Of a stretch of 64,000 nt of DNA, positions 4,079 to 33,997 are shown in pieces (the first letter of the stretch is position 1; each line of letters starts with the position of its first letter). The stretch spans positions 455,417-519,416 of the forward strand of contig CAWBTF010000014.1 in assembly GCA_963791595.1 (NCBI GenBank), in the 5' to 3' direction. The DNA comes from an uncultured beta proteobacterium. Its GTDB lineage: Bacteria > Pseudomonadota > Gammaproteobacteria > Burkholderiales > Burkholderiaceae_C. Under the pieces are notes generated by a model. It had not been told where the DNA came from. It worked only from the letters and a program-made list of their open reading frames with translations, and ran no database searches. The translations under genes were made by a program, and so were the position numbers.

Positions 4079-4399
4079 TCACTTCTTCCCCTCGATCGCC
4101 TTCGCAGGCTTGTCCTTCTTTCTGAACATCTCCAGCATGCGCCGCGTGACGAGGAAGCCGCCGAAGATGTTCACCGAGGCCAGCGCGACGGCGAGCACAC
4201 CCATCGTCTTGCCGAGCGTCGTTTCGGTCAGCGCCGCGGCGAGCATCGCGCCGACGATCACGATCGCCGAAATCGCATTCGTCACCGACATCAGCGGCGT
4301 GTGCAGCGCCGGCGTGACGGTCCAGACGACGTGGTAGCCGACGTAGATCGCGAGCACGAAGATGATGAGGTTCGTAATGGTGGGTGAGACGATGTCCAT
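4079..4399 (-). CDS. pntA: NAD(P) transhydrogenase subunit alpha part 2 (small membrane subunit, PntAB)
   Basis: 106-aa protein with 3 TM helices and a KKDKPAK tail; position between pntAA and pntB. Confidence 0.85.
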
Positions 4400-4431
4400 G
4401 GAGTGTTCCTTGTTCTTCGCAGTGCAATCGG

Positions 4432-5547
4432 CTACTTCCGCTTGACCTCGCCGCCCTGCGTCATCAGGCAGGCCACGACGATGTCGTCATCCATCGGCAC
4501 ATGGAACGTGGCTTCCTTCGTGAGCACGAGCTTCAGGAAGTCGAGCACGTTGCGCGCGTACAGGCTCGAGCTGTCGGCCGCCACCAGCGCCGGGATGTTG
4601 GTCTCGCCCACCAGCGTAACGCCGTGCTTCACCACCGTCTTGCCGGCTTCGGTGAGCGGGCAGTTGCCGCCGGCCGGCGCCGCCATGTCGACGATCACCG
4701 AGCCCGGCTTCATGCTCTTCACCATCTCTTCCGTGATCAGCACCGGCGCCGCGCGGCCCGGAATCAGCGCGGTCGAGATCACGATGTCGGCCGCAGCGAC
4801 GCGCTTGGCGACTTCGATCTTCTGCCGCTCTAACCAACTCTGCGGCATCGGCCGCGCGTAGCCGCCCACGCCTTCGGCGGCTTCCTTCTCCTCGGCAGTT
4901 TCGTACGCGACGTCGATGAACTTCGCGCCGAGCGATTCGACCTGCTCCTTTACGCTCGGGCGCACGTCGCTCGCCTCGATCACCGCGCCCAGGCGCTTTG
5001 CGGTGGCGATCGCCTGCAATCCGGCCACGCCCACGCCGAGGATCACGATCCGCGCCGCCTTGATCGTCCCGGCCGCCGTCATCAGCATCGGGAACAGGCG
5101 CTGGTACTTGTCGGCCGCCATCATCACCGCCTTGTAGCCGGCGATGTTGGCCTGGCTGGAGAGCACGTCCATGCTCTGCGCGCGCGTCGTGCGCGGCGCG
5201 GCTTCCAGCGCAAAGCTGGTCAGGCCGGCGCTGGCCAGGCGCTGCAAACCTTCCTTGTCGAAGGGGTTGAGCATGCCGACGAGCGCGGTGCCGCTTTTCA
5301 TCAGGCCCAGCTCGTCGGCGCTCGGGCTGCGCACCTTGAGCACGAGCTCGCAAGCCAGGGCGCCGGCACGGTCGGTGATCTCGGCGCCGGCCGCGGCGTA
5401 GGCCGCGTCGGTGGCGCTGGCGGCGACGCCCGCACCCGATTGCACCTTGACCGTGTGGCCCTGCGCCTTGAGCTTCTTTGCCGTCTCGGGCGTCGCCGCA
5501 ACGCGGGTTTCGCCCGCCGCGGTTTCGAGCGGGACTCCGATCAACAT
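4432..5547 (-). CDS. pntA: NAD(P) transhydrogenase subunit alpha part 1 (PntAA, dI NAD(H)-binding domain)
   Basis: 371-aa translation [26 protein letters not shown]…[21 protein letters not shown] with a Rossmann GxGxxG motif. Confidence 0.9.
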
Positions 5548-28273: not shown

Positions 28274-28651
28274 CTAGGATTCGCCGACCCTCTTTGTTAG
28301 CTCATTGAGCTGCGCCCGCAACGCCCTGCGCCCGGCACTGTTCGTCGCGCGCCAGGCCTGCAGCGCAAGCGCCAGAAACTGCTGCTCCGTCGCCGACACC
28401 CCCACCGGCGCGCGTTCCTCATCCAGCCACCCCTGCAGCTTGCCGCAGTGCTGCTCGATCTGCCGCGCGAGCTTGTCGCCGATCGGCCGTGACGACTTGA
28501 TCTGGCTCCACATGCTGGGCGAAATCTCCAGGCTCGCGGCAAACGCCTGCTCGAGACCCTTGGGCGAATCGCCCGCGGCCAGCGCCTTTTCGGCGAAGGC
28601 CTGAAACAGCGCCAATGCGTTCTGTCGTCGTGTGACGGTGATGTTGGCCAA
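28274..28651 (-). CDS. hypothetical small DNA-binding-like protein (phage CII/Cro-like HTH region …ISPSMWSQIKSSRPIGDKLARQIEQ…)
   Basis: 125-aa ORF divergent from the promoter/small-ORF unit; resemblance to the lambda cII VDKSQISRWKRD segment is by eye only. Confidence 0.45.
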   Translation of the reverse strand: MANITVTRRQNALALFQAFAEKALAAGDSPKGLEQAFAASLEISPSMWSQIKSSRPIGDKLARQIEQHCGKLQGWLDEERAPVGVSATEQQFLALALQAWRATNSAGRRALRAQLNELTKRVGES

Positions 28652-28713
28652 GTCGTGTTGTGTGCAGGAAGCAACGCATTCGAGCGCCGCGATCGCGCCA
28701 TTGTGGCAGGGGG

Positions 28714-28742
28714 TTGACGGCCTCGTAAAGACTCTTTACAGT
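28714..28742 (+). promoter_or_regulatory. sigma70-like promoter TTGACG-N17-TACAGT
   Basis: near-consensus -35 with optimal 17-bp spacing to a 4/6 -10; about 60 nt upstream of a GTG-initiated small ORF preceded by AAGGA. Confidence 0.45.
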
Positions 28743-28802
28743 GCGCCACTTCGCTCGAAAGAGCATTGTTTGCAACCCAGAATTTCGAAGGACCGCATCG
28801 TC

Positions 28803-28985
28803 GTGAAACCCAATCGCATCGTCGGAACGTTCCGCCCCGCCCAGGGACGGGTCGGATTCGCGCCTGCCTTGGCGATGCAGCCTTGGGTCGCCTGCGGCAC
28901 GGCAATGCAACTGTCGTTCGCGACGAGCTATCTGCCGCTTGATCGACATGAGGATCGATTGCACCCGGGGGAGGGAAGCGCGTAG
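28803..28985 (+). CDS. hypothetical small protein (60 aa, GTG start) between the promoter and the intrinsic terminator; alternatively the 5' part of a small RNA
   Basis: frame of ORF 28632-28985; RBS AAGGA 9 nt upstream; no homology recognised. Confidence 0.3.
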   Translation: MKPNRIVGTFRPAQGRVGFAPALAMQPWVACGTAMQLSFATSYLPLDRHEDRLHPGEGSA

Positions 28986-29011
28986 GCGCACCTTCCAACT
29001 CTGTTCGCAGA

Positions 29012-29050
29012 GGCCCGGGCCCGATGAGGACCCGGGCCTTTTTGTTTTCT
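29012..29050 (+). terminator. rho-independent terminator GGCCCGGG-(loop)-CCCGGGCC followed by TTTTTGTTTT
   Basis: 8-bp GC stem plus U-tract, the only strong example on this strand in the region. Confidence 0.65.
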
Positions 29051-29385
29051 GCCTTGGTCTTTCGTTTTCACTCGGCACGCGCATCGGCGCATGCCGGCGA
29101 TCGATGGATCGCGAGGCCGCGAATGCGGTCGCTCTTTAACAATTTGCCGCGAGACGACTTCGGTACTGGCCGAGGCTTCGTCTCGCATTGTTTGCCGGGC
29201 ACGGTTGCGTCTGCGAGGGCGCTCCGTGCCTGAGCGAACCACTTCGGGTGTGCCCATGCACTCCGCTGCCGCATGCCATGGTGTTGGCGGCGCGGGATGT
29301 GCGCGGCCCCAGGCCGGGGCCACATGCAGCGAGACACCACATCCGACGGGATGCTCGCGTGTGGGCACAGCCGAAGTGGAATCTT

Positions 29386-29462
29386 GTCGCGTTCGTCTAG
29401 CCGGCCCAGGACGCCACCCTTTCAAGGTGACTACGCGGGTTCGAGACCCGCACGCGACGCCA
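29386..29462 (+). tRNA. tRNA-Glu (anticodon TTC)
   Basis: cloverleaf folded by hand; D-arm GTCTAGCCGGCCCAGGAC almost identical to E. coli tRNA-Glu; 27-43 mismatch; encoded CCA. Confidence 0.8.
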
Positions 29463-29551
29463 GTCAAGGAACCCTCGTCGAGCTTGTGCTTCGAGGGCGG
29501 AAATCGGCCGCAACGATTGGGCGGCGCCGGAACCCGTGCCCGGATGGAATT

Positions 29552-29627
29552 GCCTCGTTAACTCAGCGGCCAGAGTGCCGGCCTGTCTAGCCGGAAGCCG
29601 CGGGTTCGATCCCCGCACGAGGCGCCA
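29552..29627 (+). tRNA. tRNA-Asp (anticodon GTC)
   Basis: acceptor GCCTCGT/ACGAGGC; anticodon loop CTGTCTA; T-arm GCGGG-TTCGATC-CCCGC; CCA. Confidence 0.8.
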
Positions 29628-29637
29628 GGACAAATCT

Positions 29638-29713
29638 GCCGAGATAGCTCAGCCGGTAGAGCGGCGCGTTGAAGGCGCGTGCGTCGGGGGATCGAAGCCC
29701 TCTCTCGGCACCA
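29638..29713 (+). tRNA. tRNA-Phe (anticodon GAA); atypical G37 and T-loop ATCGAAG (A54)
   Basis: acceptor GCCGAGA/TCTCGGC; D-arm TAGCTCAGCCGGTAGAGC; anticodon loop TTGAAGG. Confidence 0.7.
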
Positions 29714-29719
29714 GACAGA

Positions 29720-29797
29720 ACCTCGTTAGCTCAGTGGAATCAGAGCATCGGCCTACGAAGCCGAGGGTCGCACGTTCGAGTCGTGCACGAGGTGCCA
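29720..29797 (+). tRNA. tRNA-Arg (anticodon ACG)
   Basis: acceptor ACCTCGT/ACGAGGT; anticodon loop CTACGAA; T-arm GCACG-TTCGAGT-CGTGC; CCA. Confidence 0.8.
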
Positions 29798-29802
29798 CTC
29801 AT

Positions 29803-29878
29803 CTCGGTGTGGCGCAGATGGCAGCGCGCGTGCTTCGGGAGCACGGGGTCGCAGGTTCGAGACCTGCCACCGAGACCA
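29803..29878 (+). tRNA. tRNA-Pro (anticodon CGG)
   Basis: acceptor CTCGGTG/CACCGAG; anticodon loop TTCGGGA; T-arm GCAGG-TTCGAGA-CCTGC; CCA. Confidence 0.8.
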
Positions 29879-29899
29879 TTCGACGACGTGCGCTTGGGC

Positions 29900-29973
29900 G
29901 TGGCCGTAGCTCAACGGCAGAGCTGCGGGATGTGACCCCGCCGGTGCCGGTTCGATTCCGGCCGGTCACCCCC
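29900..29973 (+). tRNA. tRNA-His (anticodon GTG); no encoded G-1 (C at -1), C73 discriminator, A32, and a 3' end CCCCA rather than a clean CCA
   Basis: acceptor GTGGCCG/CGGTCAC; D-arm TAGCTCAACGGCAGAGC; anticodon loop ATGTGAC; T-arm GCCGG-TTCGATT-CCGGC. Confidence 0.6.
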
Positions 29974-29990
29974 AAGCGCACACAACCCAC

Positions 29991-30066
29991 GCGTCGCGAA
30001 CTCGAGCGGCAGAGTACCGGGCTTTTAACCCGGCGTGTCAGGGTTCGAGCCCCTGGCGACGCACCA
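29991..30066 (+). tRNA. tRNA-Lys (anticodon TTT)
   Basis: acceptor GCGTCGC/GCGACGC; anticodon loop CTTTTAA; T-arm CAGGG-TTCGAGC-CCCTG; CCA. Confidence 0.8.
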
Positions 30067-30067
30067 C

Positions 30068-30153
30068 CCCCTCGTGGCGGAATCGGCAGACGCGCCGGTC
30101 TCAGAAACCGGTGCCCAAAGGGCATGTCCGTTCGACCCGGACCGAGGGGACCA
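30068..30153 (+). tRNA. tRNA-Leu (anticodon CAG), type II with a long variable arm
   Basis: acceptor CCCCTCG/CGAGGGG; anticodon loop CTCAGAA; variable arm TGCCCAAAGGGCAT; T-arm GTCCG-TTCGACC-CGGAC; CCA. Confidence 0.8.
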
Positions 30154-30157
30154 ATGA

Positions 30158-30233
30158 TGCGGTGTAGTCGAGTGGCCTCAGACACCAGCCTTTGAAGCTG
30201 GGGACGTTGGTTCAAATCCAACCGCCGCTGCCA
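30158..30233 (+). tRNA. tRNA-Gln (anticodon TTG); U1-U72 mismatch at the top of the acceptor stem and a 3-bp D-stem
   Basis: anticodon arm CCAGC-CTTTGAA-GCTGG; T-arm GTTGG-TTCAAAT-CCAAC; CCA. Confidence 0.65.
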
Positions 30234-31009: not shown

Positions 31010-31066
31010 GGGCCGTCAATGGATTGCACCGCGAGGTGCCGGGTTCGATCCCCGGATGGCCCTCCA
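31010..31066 (+). ncRNA. 57-nt tRNA-like minihelix: a 7-bp acceptor stem (GGGCCGU/AUGGCCC), a GCACC-GCGA-GGUGC tetraloop hairpin, a canonical T-arm (CCGGG-TTCGATC-CCCGG), discriminator U and CCA; no D-arm or anticodon arm
   Basis: hand folding; either an internally deleted tRNA remnant or a tRNA-like domain of a larger ncRNA. Confidence 0.4.
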
Positions 31067-31140
31067 CTGGATAGCTCAGATGGGTAGAGCAACGACCTGA
31101 TAAGTCGTGTGTCGCGGGTTCGACTCCCGCTCCAAAGCAC
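31065..31140 (+). pseudogene. tRNA-Ile(GAT)-like pseudogene: intact D-arm, anticodon arm (ACGAC-CTGATAA-GTCGT) and T-arm, but the acceptor-stem strands (CACTGGA vs TCCAAAG) do not pair; a tRNA-Cys-like anticodon hairpin (CTGGA-CTGCAAA-TCCAG) follows at about 31146-31162
   Basis: hand folding of the sequence between the HNH gene and the SPFH gene. Confidence 0.45.
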
Positions 31141-31432
31141 TGGACTGCAAATCCAGCTATTCGAACGGTCGAAAGACCACCGCCGAACGCGTGCAGGGGG
31201 TGGGTCGCACCCAGGGCAGGTTCGCTTGCCCGAGGTGCGCGAAGCCCACCGCACGTCAGCCCTGGCGGCCCGGCATGGAACCCGCCCGGCCCGCGCCCAC
31301 GGCCAGCCGAAGTTGCGTCTCCAAGACGCGACCGACGCGCACCGTGACGCCCGGTCCACGGCACTCCGTGCCCACCGCCACCGCTGTAACGGCACCCTTT
31401 TCAAACGACGCATGACCACAAGGAGAACGATC

Positions 31433-32569
31433 ATGCAATTCAAGCGAGTCACTGTGAAGAAGTACGAGCGCGGCGTGTTGCTGCGCAATGGCGACTTCGA
31501 GCGCGTGTTGCAACCCGGCACGCACTGGCTGTTCGCGGCCATCGACCAGCTGCGCGTCGAGACCTTCGCGCTCGAACAGCCGGCGTTCACGCATGGCCTC
31601 ACCGACTACCTGATGGCCAAGGAGCCCGAGGTCGTCGCGGCCGAGTTCGTTCGCGTGGAGTTGAGCGAAACCCAGGTCGGCCTGCGCACCGAGAACGGCG
31701 TGCTCGTCGAGGTGCTGGCCCCCGCGACGCGGCGCCTGTACTGGAAGGGCCAGGTCGACGTGCGCGTGGATGTCATCGACATCGCCGCGACGGCCGAAGT
31801 GCCTGCCGCGGTGGTGGCACGCCTGGTGCAGACGCAACTGCGGCAACGCGCGGTTGCCGGCCTGGCCGGTGTGCTGCAAGTGCAGGTTCCCGAGCATGGC
31901 GCGGGCGTGTTGTGGGTCGACGGCAAGGTTCAGCAGTTGCTCGGCCCCGGCTCGTACGCGTTCTGGAAGTTCAACCGCAATGTCGCGGTGGAAGCCGTCG
32001 ACCTGCGCTTGCAGGCGCTCGAAGTCACCGGCCAGGAAATCCTGACGAGCGACAAGGTGAGCCTGCGGTTGAACCTGTCGGCGACCTGGCGCTACACCGA
32101 TGTGCTGAAGGCCTTCACGCAACTGCAAAAGCCCGCGGAACACCTGTACCGCGAGCTGCAGTTCGGCCTGCGCTCGGCGGTCGGGACACGCTCGCTGGAC
32201 GAGTTGTTGGAGAACAAGACGGTGATCGACGAAGTCGTCACCGCTCAAGTGAAGGCCAAGCTCTCGGGCTATGGCCTGCAACTCGACGGCGTGGGCGTGA
32301 AGGACATTGTGTTGCCCGGCGAGATGAAGACGATCCTGGCGCAAGTGGTCGAGGCGGAGAAGGCGGCGCAAGCCAACGTGATCCGCCGGCGCGAGGAAAC
32401 CGCGGCCACGCGTTCCCTGCTCAACACGGCCAAGGTGATGGAGGGCAACCCCGTCGCTCTGCGCATGAAGGAGCTGGAGACGCTGGAACGCGTGGCCGAG
32501 CGCATCGACAAGATCTCCGTGTTCGGGGGTCTGGACCAGGTGCTCAACGGGCTGGTGAAGCTGCAGTAA
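31433..32569 (+). CDS. SPFH/band-7 (stomatin/prohibitin/flotillin/HflKC) domain protein
   Basis: 378 aa; RBS AAGGAG upstream of the ATG at 31433; N-terminal hydrophobic segment and a long coiled-coil C-terminus typical of SPFH proteins. Confidence 0.75.
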   Translation: MQFKRVTVKKYERGVLLRNGDFERVLQPGTHWLFAAIDQLRVETFALEQPAFTHGLTDYLMAKEPEVVAAEFVRVELSETQVGLRTENGVLVEVLAPATRRLYWKGQVDVRVDVIDIAATAEVPAAVVARLVQTQLRQRAVAGLAGVLQVQVPEHGAGVLWVDGKVQQLLGPGSYAFWKFNRNVAVEAVDLRLQALEVTGQEILTSDKVSLRLNLSATWRYTDVLKAFTQLQKPAEHLYRELQFGLRSAVGTRSLDELLENKTVIDEVVTAQVKAKLSGYGLQLDGVGVKDIVLPGEMKTILAQVVEAEKAAQANVIRRREETAATRSLLNTAKVMEGNPVALRMKELETLERVAERIDKISVFGGLDQVLNGLVKLQ

Positions 32570-32687: not shown

Positions 32688-33914
32688 ATGGAAACGAACT
32701 ACATTGAAGAAGCCGTTCCCGGCGGCGTGCCGGTGAAGATGTGGACGCGCGGCGTTCCCATCGAAGACGAGGCGAAGCGCCAACTCACGAATGCGGCGCG
32801 CCTGCCGATCGTGTTCAAGCACATCGCGGCGATGCCCGACGTTCACTTCGGCATCGGCGCGACCGTCGGCTCGGTGATCCCCACGCTGCGCGCCATCATT
32901 CCGGCCGCGGTGGGCGTGGACATCGGCTGCGGCATGATGGCCGCGAAGACGACGCTGACGGCGGACGACCTGCCCGACAACCTGGGCCCGCTGCGCGCGG
33001 CAATCGAGCGCGCCGTGCCGCACGGCCGAGCGCCGGGCTCGCGCGATCCGGGTGCGTGGGGGAACTCACATAAGGCGCCCGGCTCGGTGAACACGGCATG
33101 GGCGCAGCTCGAACCCGAGTTCACCGAGCTGTGCCGCGACTTCCCCAAGCTCGCGAAGACGAACCACATCCAGCACCTGGGAACGCTGGGCAGCGGCAAC
33201 CATTTCATCGAGGTGTGCCTGGACGAGGAAGGCTTCGTCTGGTTCATGCTGCACTCGGGCTCGCGCGGCGTGGGCAACGCGATCGGCACGATGTTCATCG
33301 AGCTCGCCAAGCAGGATGCGCTGCGCAACAACATGAACCTGCCCGACCGCGACCTCGCGTACTTCGAGGAAGGCGCGCGCTACTTCGGCGACTACGTGCG
33401 CGCGGTCGGCTGGGCGCAGCGCTTCGCGGCGATCAACCGCGAAACGATGATGAAGCGCGTGATCGACGCGGCGAAGACCGTGATCGCGAAGAGCTTTCAA
33501 AGCCACATCGAAGCGGTGAACTGCCACCACAACTACGTGCAGAAGGAGACGCACTTCGGAGAAGACGTGTACGTCACGCGCAAGGGCGCGGTGAGCGCGA
33601 AGGCCGGGCAGCTGGGAATCATTCCCGGCAGCATGGGCGCGCGCAGCTACATCGTGCGCGGCAAGGGCAACGCGGACAGCTTCGAGAGCTGCTCGCACGG
33701 CGCAGGCCGCGTGATGAGCCGCGGTGAAGCGAAGCGTCGCTTCACCCTGGCCGACCACCGCGCCGCGACGGAAGGCGTGGAGTGCCGCAAGGACAAGGAC
33801 GTGATCGACGAAACGCCCGCCGCGTACAAGGACATCGACGCGGTGATGCAGGCGCAGCGCGACCTGGTCGACGTGGTGCACACCTTGAAGCAGGTGGTGT
33901 GTGTGAAGGGATAG
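32688..33914 (+). CDS. rtcB: RNA-splicing ligase RtcB (3'-phosphate/5'-hydroxyl RNA ligase), 408 aa, closely E. coli-like; no adjacent rtcA or rtcR
   Basis: METNYIEEAVPGGVPVKMWTRGVPIEDEAKRQL…MPDVHFGIGATVGSVIPT…CSHGAGR conserved metal- and GMP-binding motifs. Confidence 0.92.
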   Translation: METNYIEEAVPGGVPVKMWTRGVPIEDEAKRQLTNAARLPIVFKHIAAMPDVHFGIGATVGSVIPTLRAIIPAAVGVDIGCGMMAAKTTLTADDLPDNLGPLRAAIERAVPHGRAPGSRDPGAWGNSHKAPGSVNTAWAQLEPEFTELCRDFPKLAKTNHIQHLGTLGSGNHFIEVCLDEEGFVWFMLHSGSRGVGNAIGTMFIELAKQDALRNNMNLPDRDLAYFEEGARYFGDYVRAVGWAQRFAAINRETMMKRVIDAAKTVIAKSFQSHIEAVNCHHNYVQKETHFGEDVYVTRKGAVSAKAGQLGIIPGSMGARSYIVRGKGNADSFESCSHGAGRVMSRGEAKRRFTLADHRAATEGVECRKDKDVIDETPAAYKDIDAVMQAQRDLVDVVHTLKQVVCVKG

Positions 33915-33997
33915 CTTCGCCCAGACTCGGGCCCGTTGTGTTTGCAGCGGGCCCGTTTTTCTGGGGAGTCCGCCGTCGTTCACCCGGCGACCGTCGC

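Follow-up and report, generated by a model that had tools for sequence, protein, structure and literature searches.

Conserved departures from canonical tRNA structure in the remnant of a mobile long tRNA array joined to an RNA-repair island of Burkholderiales

INTRODUCTION

Why should a bacterium keep a row of tRNA genes that depart, at some of the least variable positions of the molecule, from the rules that housekeeping tRNAs obey? The question is raised by a stretch of 64,000 nucleotides from an uncultured beta proteobacterium of the order Burkholderiales (GenBank assembly GCA_963791595.1, contig CAWBTF010000014.1, positions 455,417 to 519,416), here called the window, in which nine tRNA genes stand in tandem before a gene for an HNH-domain protein. 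A sequence-only reading had singled out three of the nine as irregular: a tRNA-His that lacks the extra 5' nucleotide, G-1, a tRNA-Phe with G37 and A54, and a tRNA-Gln with opposed uridines at the ends of its acceptor stem. It found them compatible with non-housekeeping copies, and likened them to the tRNAs by which phages escape anticodon nucleases. We find that the three are members of what is left, nine genes in all, of a mobile long tRNA array, or L-array, and that, on the evidence of comparison with orthologous arrays, they are selected RNAs. The defining feature of the tRNA-His, a conserved helix between its leader and its trailer, was overlooked in that reading.

Long tRNA arrays are widespread, and little is yet understood of what they do. 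The unit defined by Tran et al. in 2016 comprises at least 20 tRNA genes at a density of at least two per kb (PMC4758250). L-arrays are much longer than accretion predicts; they are supernumerary, linked to HNH genes, spread horizontally and mostly silent (Santamaria-Gomez 2021, PMC8421152). That of Anabaena stays silent until translation is impaired and shares its regulation with an HNH gene and rtcB; aminoacylation was shown for 23 of its 26 tRNAs, and a 'sponge' role has been proposed for its operonic tRNAs (PMC8421152). In the Anabaena TrcR regulon the array is grouped with the HNH gene, with rtcB and with a slipin/SPFH gene (PMC10272220).

MATERIALS AND METHODS

Genes for tRNA were called with ARAGORN and with the Rfam model RF00005. 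Genomes were scanned at one per species; from the 206 species genomes that matched, 80 loci with orthologous arrays were fetched, and 651 array tRNAs were parsed from 81 sequences. The structural alignment of tRNA-His holds 46 distinct sequences, and its paired fraction was compared with that obtained when the pairing partners were slid. The housekeeping comparators come from relatives rather than from the window's own genome: tRNA-His of Ralstonia solanacearum and tRNA-Gln of Neisseria gonorrhoeae, which stand in for the same-family housekeeping copies, and a tRNA-Phe of Variovorax. Downstream counts for RtcB refer to the 60 loci with enough sequence past the HNH gene.

RESULTS

Nine genes of a long tRNA array

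The nine genes occupy positions 29386–30233 of the + strand in the order Glu, Asp, Phe, Arg, Pro, His, Lys, Leu, Gln, and both methods call them alike, with Rfam scores of 37.8–62.9 bits, that of tRNA-Lys being the lowest (Table 1). Nine tRNAs in 848 bp reach the density of an L-array, with a gene count below 20. In the 80 related loci between 0 and 23 tRNA genes stand before the HNH gene, in conserved order, and complete arrays comprise 23–27 genes in the same order, up to 23 on chromosomes and 27 on a plasmid. Since orthologous arrays attain this size, the copy in the window is best read as a reduced member of the L-array class.

Distribution is patchy, and the array has spread horizontally. 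The HNH gene is found in 206 species genomes, all of them Burkholderiales (including Piscinibacter, Rubrivivax, Rhizobacter, Aquabacterium, Ideonella, Variovorax, Ramlibacter and Caldimonas), and the genes beyond the module differ between species in the 80 loci. An array of 27 tRNAs, with an HNH gene 72% identical to that of the window, is carried by the conjugative megaplasmid RPME01 of Methylibium petroleiphilum PM1, and other copies are present on plasmids of Variovorax and Polaromonas. Some related loci have no array tRNAs, and in Variovorax a canonical tRNA-Phe lies outside the array. HNH-domain homologs also stand beside the plasmid arrays of Nostoc/Anabaena PCC 7120, Acaryochloris, Mycobacterium and Arthrobacter.

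Departures shared by orthologous arrays

Folded by ARAGORN and Rfam, tRNA-His has C-1, C73 and A32 (and C38), and no CCA. The tRNA-Phe has the anticodon loop UUGAAGG, with G37, and the T-loop AUCGAAG, that is A54, A58 and G60. The acceptor strands of tRNA-Gln, UGCGGUG and CGCCGCU, leave U1 facing U72, after which come G73 and CCA. Where it had spoken of these features, the sequence-only reading was right. It erred over the D-stem of tRNA-Gln, which does have 3 bp, as it had reported, but is no deviation: the housekeeping tRNA-Gln of N. gonorrhoeae has the same stem, and this is ordinary tRNA-Gln architecture.

The departures recur in orthologs. G-1 is absent from 49 of 55 array tRNA-His genes, G37 is present in 23 and A54 in 16 of 29 tRNA-Phe genes, and about 36 of 40 tRNA-Gln genes have a Y1•U72 mismatch. 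Nor are they confined to the three tRNAs first noticed. A pyrimidine, U37 or C37, is found in all 41 orthologs of tRNA-Asp; G8 and G14 occur together in 26 of the 28 tRNA-Lys(CUU) genes that occupy the array position of the window's tRNA-Lys; tRNA-Gly(GCC) has A32-C33 in 20/30; and tRNA-Val(UAC) has C33 in 7/12. The T-loop reads AUCGUGC in 18 of 27 tRNA-Met genes and AUCGUUC in 14 of 18 tRNA-Ile genes, with A54 and U58 in both cases, and mismatches at 1•72 are common in these two isotypes. Because the same departures recur, they are traits of the array lineage and not random damage. In the window, U37 of tRNA-Asp is a pyrimidine where a purine is near-universal, and orthologs keep it. The window's tRNA-Leu(CAG) carries A37; tRNA-Leu(CAG) of E. 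coli has G37.

The housekeeping tRNAs of relatives lack these features. The tRNA-His of R. solanacearum has G-1, a body that begins GUGGCUG, the loop UUGUGAU, C73 and CCA; the tRNA-Gln of N. gonorrhoeae has U1:A72, G73 and CCA; and in the Variovorax tRNA-Phe, which lies 4 kb away from the array of that species, position 37 is A and the T-loop reads UUCGAUU. These three comparators bear out the proposal that the array holds non-housekeeping copies with deviations of their own, and the canonical copies do not share those deviations; had they done so, the proposal would have failed by the condition set for it. The further statement that G-1 is genome-encoded in betaproteobacteria agrees with the one Burkholderiales housekeeping tRNA-His compared, that of Ralstonia. 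One departure has a longer history. G37 of tRNA-Phe also marks the plasmid array of Methylibium and the Anabaena trn operon, and is therefore older than the window's array lineage; as far as its distribution can tell, it is inherited across the whole array family and is not a local adaptation.

Selection on the array tRNAs

Within each orthologous group the anticodon is invariant. The discriminator base, N73, obeys the bacterial identity rule in all 24 isotype groups (U73 in Gly and Cys; C73 in His; G73 in Asp, Asn, Gln, Glu, Trp and Ser; A73 in the others), and G3:U70 of tRNA-Ala is kept in 13 of 14. Array tRNAs score 47–69 bits against the Rfam model, a range that overlaps the 67–69 bits of housekeeping tRNAs. 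The marks of pseudogenes—broken stems, a drifting anticodon, no conservation across species—are not found in them. Stems kept by compensatory changes, discriminators that follow the identity rules and encoded CCA ends thus show that the deviant tRNAs are selected RNAs and not decaying copies.

A leader–trailer helix encloses tRNA-His

The body of the window's tRNA-His, GUGGCCG...CGGUCAC, runs from 29900 to 29969, with C at -1 (29899), C73 at 29970 and CCCA as the next bases. Genes of this G-1-less type are flanked by GUGCGCUUGGG and CCCAAGCGCAU, and leader and trailer form a helix of 11 bp, closed on the tRNA side by a Y-1•C73 mismatch, that is 98.8% paired in the 46-sequence alignment. Two-sided changes are seen at three of its pairs (CG to UA; UA to CG or GC; GC to AU or CG), and it contains many G•U pairs, which fits an RNA helix of the + strand. 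The tRNA body is 100% paired in orthologs, where the D, anticodon and T stems show compensatory changes. Taken together, body and helix are 99.6% paired, against 31–46% when partners are slid, and nine pairs show two-sided changes. The minimum-energy fold of 29884–29985 consists of cloverleaf and helix, separated by a 1x1 C•C loop (-58.8 kcal/mol, z = -4.3). No other isotype has anything comparable: the helical extension averages 10.4 bp for tRNA-His and at most 1.2 bp for each of the others. A role for the inverted repeat at the level of DNA, as a protein site or a recombination site, was considered and is judged unlikely, since the two arms covary and accept G•U pairs on the + strand; no integrase is present.

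The base at -1 is a pyrimidine, U or C, in 49 of 55 arrays, and base 73 is C in every one. G-1 appears only in the arrays of Variovorax and Ramlibacter, in two further loci (L041 and L080), on the Methylibium plasmid and in Anabaena. An encoded CCA is likewise rare, being found in 11% of array tRNA-His genes as against 78–100% of those of each other isotype. The anticodon, GUG, is invariant (55/55). Positions 32 and 38 are the most variable within the structured RNA (about 1.55 bits, versus 1.9 bits for unconstrained flanks), and U33 is replaced by C in 14 of 55. In many arrays an insert, an open reading frame (ORF) for a PcfJ-like protein of about 380 amino acids (Pfam PF14284, E 1.6e-13), lies exactly upstream of the helix-enclosed gene, between tRNA-Pro and tRNA-His (L029:3700-4848 and L002:~4150-5309, for example); it is absent from the window.

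Such a gene would be expected to mature along a path of its own. On tRNA-His, bacterial RNase P spares G-1, since this base is paired to C73, and the histidyl-tRNA synthetase, HisRS, depends strongly on this extra 5' nucleotide. With Y-1 opposite C73, the expected product would start at G1. Release from the helix would call either for cleavage of the duplex or for RNase P to cut at +1, then for 3' trimming and completion of the CCA end; the tRNA most likely emerges without G-1. By the rules of E. coli HisRS it would be charged poorly unless U-1 were kept or G-1 were added afterwards.

The RNA-repair island

The array forms part of an island: a divergent repressor gene, then the tRNA array, the HNH gene, a band-7-associated tRNA-like RNA, a gene for an SPFH/Band-7 protein, the gene for the RNA ligase RtcB and a terminator (Table 1). 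From the array to that terminator, no other strong terminator-like site was found. In the related loci the SPFH gene lies downstream of the HNH gene in 40 (median identity 86%), and RtcB follows in 58 of the 60 loci that could be scored.

Table 1. Features of the island, with positions in the window
Feature	Positions	Strand	Character or evidence
Small repressor-like helix-turn-helix (HTH) ORF, 125 amino acids (aa)	28274..28651	-	PHROG 12107 'transcriptional repressor', E 1.9e-8
Non-coding leader	28700..29385	+	~700 nt; blastn 70-75% identical to upstream regions of other loci
tRNA-Glu(UUC)	29386..29462	+	G73-CCA; ARAGORN, Rfam 51.7 bits
tRNA-Asp(GUC)	29552..29627	+	Loop CUGUCUA, U37 (pyrimidine at 37)
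tRNA-Phe(GAA)	29638..29713	+	G37; T-loop AUCGAAG; A73-CCA
tRNA-Arg(ACG)	29720..29797	+	ARAGORN; Rfam 61.3 bits
tRNA-Pro(CGG)	29803..29878	+	C1:G72, G37, A73-CCA; ARAGORN, Rfam
Helix 5' strand (leader of tRNA-His), GUGCGCUUGGG	29888..29898	+	Pairs with 29971-29981; present in minimum-energy fold
tRNA-His(GUG)	29900..29970	+	70-nt body + C73; C at -1 (29899); without CCA; loop AUGUGAC
Helix 3' strand (trailer of tRNA-His), CCCAAGCGCAC	29971..29981	+	Alignment and minimum-energy fold
tRNA-Lys(UUU)	29991..30066	+	G8 and G14 replace U8 and A14; Rfam 37.8 bits
tRNA-Leu(CAG)	30068..30153	+	C1:G72, A37, A73-CCA
tRNA-Gln(UUG)	30158..30233	+	U1•U72 mismatch; G73-CCA; D-stem 3 bp
HNH-domain protein, 191 aa	30275..30850	+	Pfam HNH_5, E 6e-17; preceded by GGAGG ribosome-binding site
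tRNA-like minihelix	31010..31066	+	7-bp acceptor-like stem, one hairpin, T-arm, U-CCA; read from sequence
Band-7-associated tRNA-like RNA (ARAGORN 'tRNA-Ile')	31065..31138	+	Two acceptor mismatches, no CCA
Two conserved hairpins, CUGGA-CUGCAAA-UCCAG and GGUC-GAAA-GACC	31140..31178	+	Comparative alignment
SPFH/Band-7 protein	31433..32569	+	Pfam Band_7, E 5e-33
RtcB RNA ligase	32688..33914	+	Pfam RtcB, E 7e-129
Intrinsic terminator-like hairpin (12 bp) and T run	33928..33955	+	Probable operon end

A repressor-like ORF precedes the array in 52 related loci (tblastn; median identity 71%), always on the opposite strand. The leader between it and the array contains long hairpins (29241-29258 with 29362-29379, for example) and, at about 29011-29050, a hairpin and T run that resemble a terminator. 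A tRNA-Gly(GCC) gene sits within the leader region in other species; no degenerate tRNA-Gly was detected upstream of tRNA-Glu in the window. The promoter was not located: the sequence just before the first tRNA shows neither a sigma-70 nor a sigma-54 consensus, a scan for sigma-70 sites gave nothing useful, and matches to a sigma-54 promoter of the RtcR type were at chance level, with none upstream of the array.

The HNH gene starts 42 nt past tRNA-Gln. Its protein has 1455 homologs, the best 120 of which are 81–93% identical to it and of the same length. The N-terminal 85 or so residues (VLQLDIQGTPQAWISLE...) are very conserved and match no family. As a member of a known defence or tRNase family the protein could not be placed: only generic HNH-domain matches were obtained, the best being to PtuB, IscB and the Cas9 HNH domain, and PtuB is the nearest family from a defence system.

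Between the HNH and SPFH genes, positions 31010-31178 form a conserved composite RNA, made up of a minihelix, a tRNA-like module and two hairpins, which probably corresponds to the predicted 'b7a-tRNA'. Hairpin and T-arm of the minihelix covary in 33 loci, with an Rfam match that is only sub-threshold, and the GGUC-GAAA-GACC hairpin is invariant in the same number. The central module scores 51.8 bits on RF00005, over model positions 4–67 only, with an acceptor stem of about 4 bp; its anticodon loop differs by species, and ARAGORN calls it Ile, Met, Phe, Val, Cys, Glu, Lys, Ser or Ala. Folded as a single sequence, the stretch that follows the HNH gene does no better than shuffles (z = -0.99), so that the comparative alignment alone is informative here.

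In one locus (L006:8567-8699) a bona fide YrlA Y RNA (Rfam 76.1 bits, threshold 69) replaces SPFH and b7a-tRNA. The window itself yields only sub-threshold matches to YrlA, at tRNA–tRNA junctions. In L006 and in L003, L007, L009 and L040 the ORF after the HNH gene resembles Ro/Rsr (TROVE) by eye, without profile confirmation. Arrays of this family would thus attach to either flavour of RtcB repair operon, Band-7/b7a-tRNA or Rsr/YrlA.

Likeness to phage-encoded tRNAs, the remaining element of the sequence-only reading, needs qualification. No phage genes flank the array; what surrounds it is a conserved RNA-repair island, chromosomal in some genomes and plasmid-borne in others. An origin in phage was considered and set aside: the region has no distinct base composition and the module no phage genes. 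Full-length HNH homologs (37–43% identity) do occur in the jumbo phages Ralstonia RsoM2USA and Salicola SCTP-2, and the RsoM2USA homolog is not beside tRNAs. Three contigs classed as viral in IMG/VR (L082-L084) begin at a 76%-identical HNH gene, with the upstream side, and any array it might hold, cut off. About 1.3 kb upstream of the Variovorax saccharolyticus array lies a C4 antisense RNA, an immunity RNA of the P1/P7 phage type (RF01695, 59.9 bits; L047:4016-4106, - strand), which hints at a prophage- or plasmid-derived neighbourhood at that locus. On the Methylibium plasmid (L081, RPME01 239151-257708) genes for an HD-domain protein and an AlkB dioxygenase are interspersed in the array and a NADAR gene lies upstream; they suggest a wider cargo for repair of RNA or nucleotide damage.

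DISCUSSION

What are these tRNAs for? The best explanation, to which we give a probability of roughly 0.55, is that the selected tRNAs of this L-array remnant make up a repressed reserve pool of chargeable tRNAs, housed in an RNA-repair island. By analogy with Anabaena, the array would normally be repressed; it would be expressed, with RtcB and the tRNA-like cofactors, once translation stalls or the housekeeping pool suffers damage. Many of the deviations sit at bases read by modification enzymes and tRNA nucleases (32/33/37/38, 54/58/60, 8/14, 1:72 and -1), and reserve tRNAs so altered would depend less on the former and be less visible to both.

Escape from tRNA nucleases is plausible by analogy with better-known cases. 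Altered loop bases let phage tRNAs escape anticodon nucleases (van den Berg et al. 2023, PMC10264068). Like these, the array tRNAs are extra isoacceptors, keep the anticodon and differ in the flanking loop bases (AUGUGAC in tRNA-His, against UUGUGAU in Ralstonia; G37 in tRNA-Phe, against A37 in Variovorax); unlike them, they are not phage-encoded, and their deviations extend to the T-loop, 8/14, 1:72 and -1. Toxins of contact-dependent inhibition (CDI) systems of Burkholderia and enterobacteria cut the T-loop between the conserved T and pseudouridine, or the 3' acceptor ends of tRNA-Gln, tRNA-Asn and tRNA-Ile(GAU) (PMC9086364). The overlap between the targets of CDI toxins and anticodon nucleases and the A54, U72 and loop changes of the array may be taken as a lead.

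Several observations weigh against the reserve-pool explanation. Array content ranges from 0 to 23 genes and the window has lost more than half of the set; selection on single genes must therefore be weak or conditional. G37 of tRNA-Phe, common to cyanobacterial and plasmid arrays, may be inheritance rather than adaptation here. The variability of positions 32 and 38 in tRNA-His, and its C33, look like relaxed decoding constraint, which would fit at least as well as a directed arms race. And a tRNA-His without G-1, with C73, should be a poor substrate for HisRS, which sits badly with a purely spare-translation role.

Other explanations were weighed. Perhaps the deviations are inherited baggage, traits of a foreign lineage that are tolerated in redundant, mostly silent genes and have no adaptive meaning in the present host. 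Arrays do spread horizontally and are mostly silent (PMC8421152), they shrink to nothing in some loci, G37 is shared with Anabaena and Methylibium, and the His loop AUGUGAC and Gln U1•U72 recur on the Methylibium plasmid. We take this possibility seriously and yet think it unlikely: many species retain stems, discriminators, G3:U70 and CCA, as in genes under selection, and in tRNA-His the helix and the loss of G-1 are derived and were then fixed, with compensatory changes, in at least 46 sequences, which is hard to explain without a function. More drastic is the idea that the array is simply decaying, its members redundant duplicates that gather random damage. The window does keep only nine of about 23 ancestral genes, its tRNA-Lys scores a mere 37.8 bits, and some loci contain degenerate or unassignable tRNAs. 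But the same 'defects' appear in tens of species, pairing stands at 99.6–100% with compensatory substitutions, anticodons are invariant, discriminators and CCA are kept, and the scores overlap those of housekeeping tRNAs; decay is strongly disfavoured, to the point of being very improbable.

Another departure from the reserve pool supposes that some members, above all the helix-enclosed tRNA-His, are never read by the ribosome and serve instead as decoys or sponges for tRNases, or as damage sensors or cofactors for RtcB. The tRNA-His lacks G-1 and CCA and is nearly unconstrained at the positions that flank its anticodon; the same operon has two tRNA-like RNAs with no decoding role, in whose place sister loci have a Y RNA or, by eye, an Rsr-like ORF; and the sponge proposed for Anabaena (PMC8421152) is of this kind. 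Against it, the GUG anticodon and C73 never vary, all other isotypes keep the identity elements and encoded CCA expected of charged tRNAs, and most of the Anabaena array is in fact aminoacylated. We consider it improbable. A bolder elaboration of the reserve pool would have the tRNA-His be a 'locked' pro-tRNA, freed or given its -1 nucleotide only by stress-specific processing, and the array as a whole be a modification-independent, tRNase-invisible set, used while RtcB repairs the housekeeping pool. Candidate factors for the unlocking would be RNase III, the adjacent HNH protein acting on RNA, RtcB, or templated 3'–5' addition opposite C73. We offer this proposal tentatively, as a conjecture that is on the whole unlikely.

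The nearest relatives of the island are instructive. With the Anabaena/Nostoc sp. PCC 7120 trn operon it shares same-strand tandem tRNAs that add redundant isodecoders, an adjacent HNH gene, the tie to rtcB and SPFH/slipin, a dedicated repressor (here putative), plasmid-borne copies and G37 in tRNA-Phe(GAA). The two differ in arrangement, since array, HNH, SPFH and RtcB are joined here in one island and are scattered members of a regulon there; in the repressor, which is of the phage HTH type here and a ribbon-helix-helix protein there; in the HNH protein, which here has an extra conserved N-terminus of 85 residues and aligns with its Anabaena counterpart over residues 82–159 only; and in tRNA-His, which in Anabaena keeps G-1 and has no helix. 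The RPME01 array, from the same family (Sphaerotilaceae), is closer, with the same gene order and with G37, U1•U72 and the AUGUGAC loop in the corresponding tRNAs. It differs, besides its 27 tRNAs, its conjugative plasmid and its interspersed HD-domain, AlkB and NADAR genes, in a tRNA-His with G-1, C73 and CCA and no leader–trailer helix, and in having no SPFH or RtcB gene annotated within 9 kb downstream of HNH.

The downstream half of the island conforms to operons already predicted. Next to RtcB, Burroughs and Aravind predicted a 'b7a-tRNA' in 2016, experimentally unvalidated (as described in bioRxiv 10.1101/312249), and in the window, too, RtcB, the Band-7 protein and the tRNA-like RNA adjoin, all three being present. 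Rsr–YrlA–RtcB operons are the other variety (Chen et al. 2014, PMC4201824). Available descriptions of both varieties report no long, chargeable-looking tRNA array and HNH gene directly upstream.

As for a tRNA-His without G-1, Wang, Sobral and Williams in 2007 reportedly described some Alphaproteobacteria in which it is the only, housekeeping copy, with A73 and a co-evolved HisRS. The array tRNA-His differs in being an accessory copy, in its leader–trailer helix and in its invariant C73, where A73 characterizes the alphaproteobacterial type.

Parts of this picture are thus already on record: L-arrays and their link to HNH and rtcB, the operon of RtcB, Band-7 and tRNA-like RNA, and the Methylibium plasmid array, which Tran et al. 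listed in 2016 (PMC4758250). In the literature searched we found no description of a long tRNA array fused, across many Burkholderiales, to a Band-7/b7a-tRNA (or Rsr/YrlA)–RtcB operon; none of a conserved catalogue of departures at near-universal tRNA positions; and none of a covarying leader–trailer helix around a tRNA-His that lacks G-1 and CCA.

The array is physically joined to RtcB, the Band-7 protein and the tRNA-like RNAs, and hence array tRNAs and RNA repair constitute a single genetic unit in many environmental Burkholderiales, a closer association than the shared regulon of Anabaena. Its departures at -1, 8/14, 33, 37, 54/58 and 1:72 are natural experiments on what bacterial translation will tolerate, and they point to specific, testable targets among tRNA nucleases and modification enzymes. 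A tRNA-His with C73 and without G-1, held in a covarying helix, bears on how the identity of this tRNA, and the processing of its 5' end, can be rewired.

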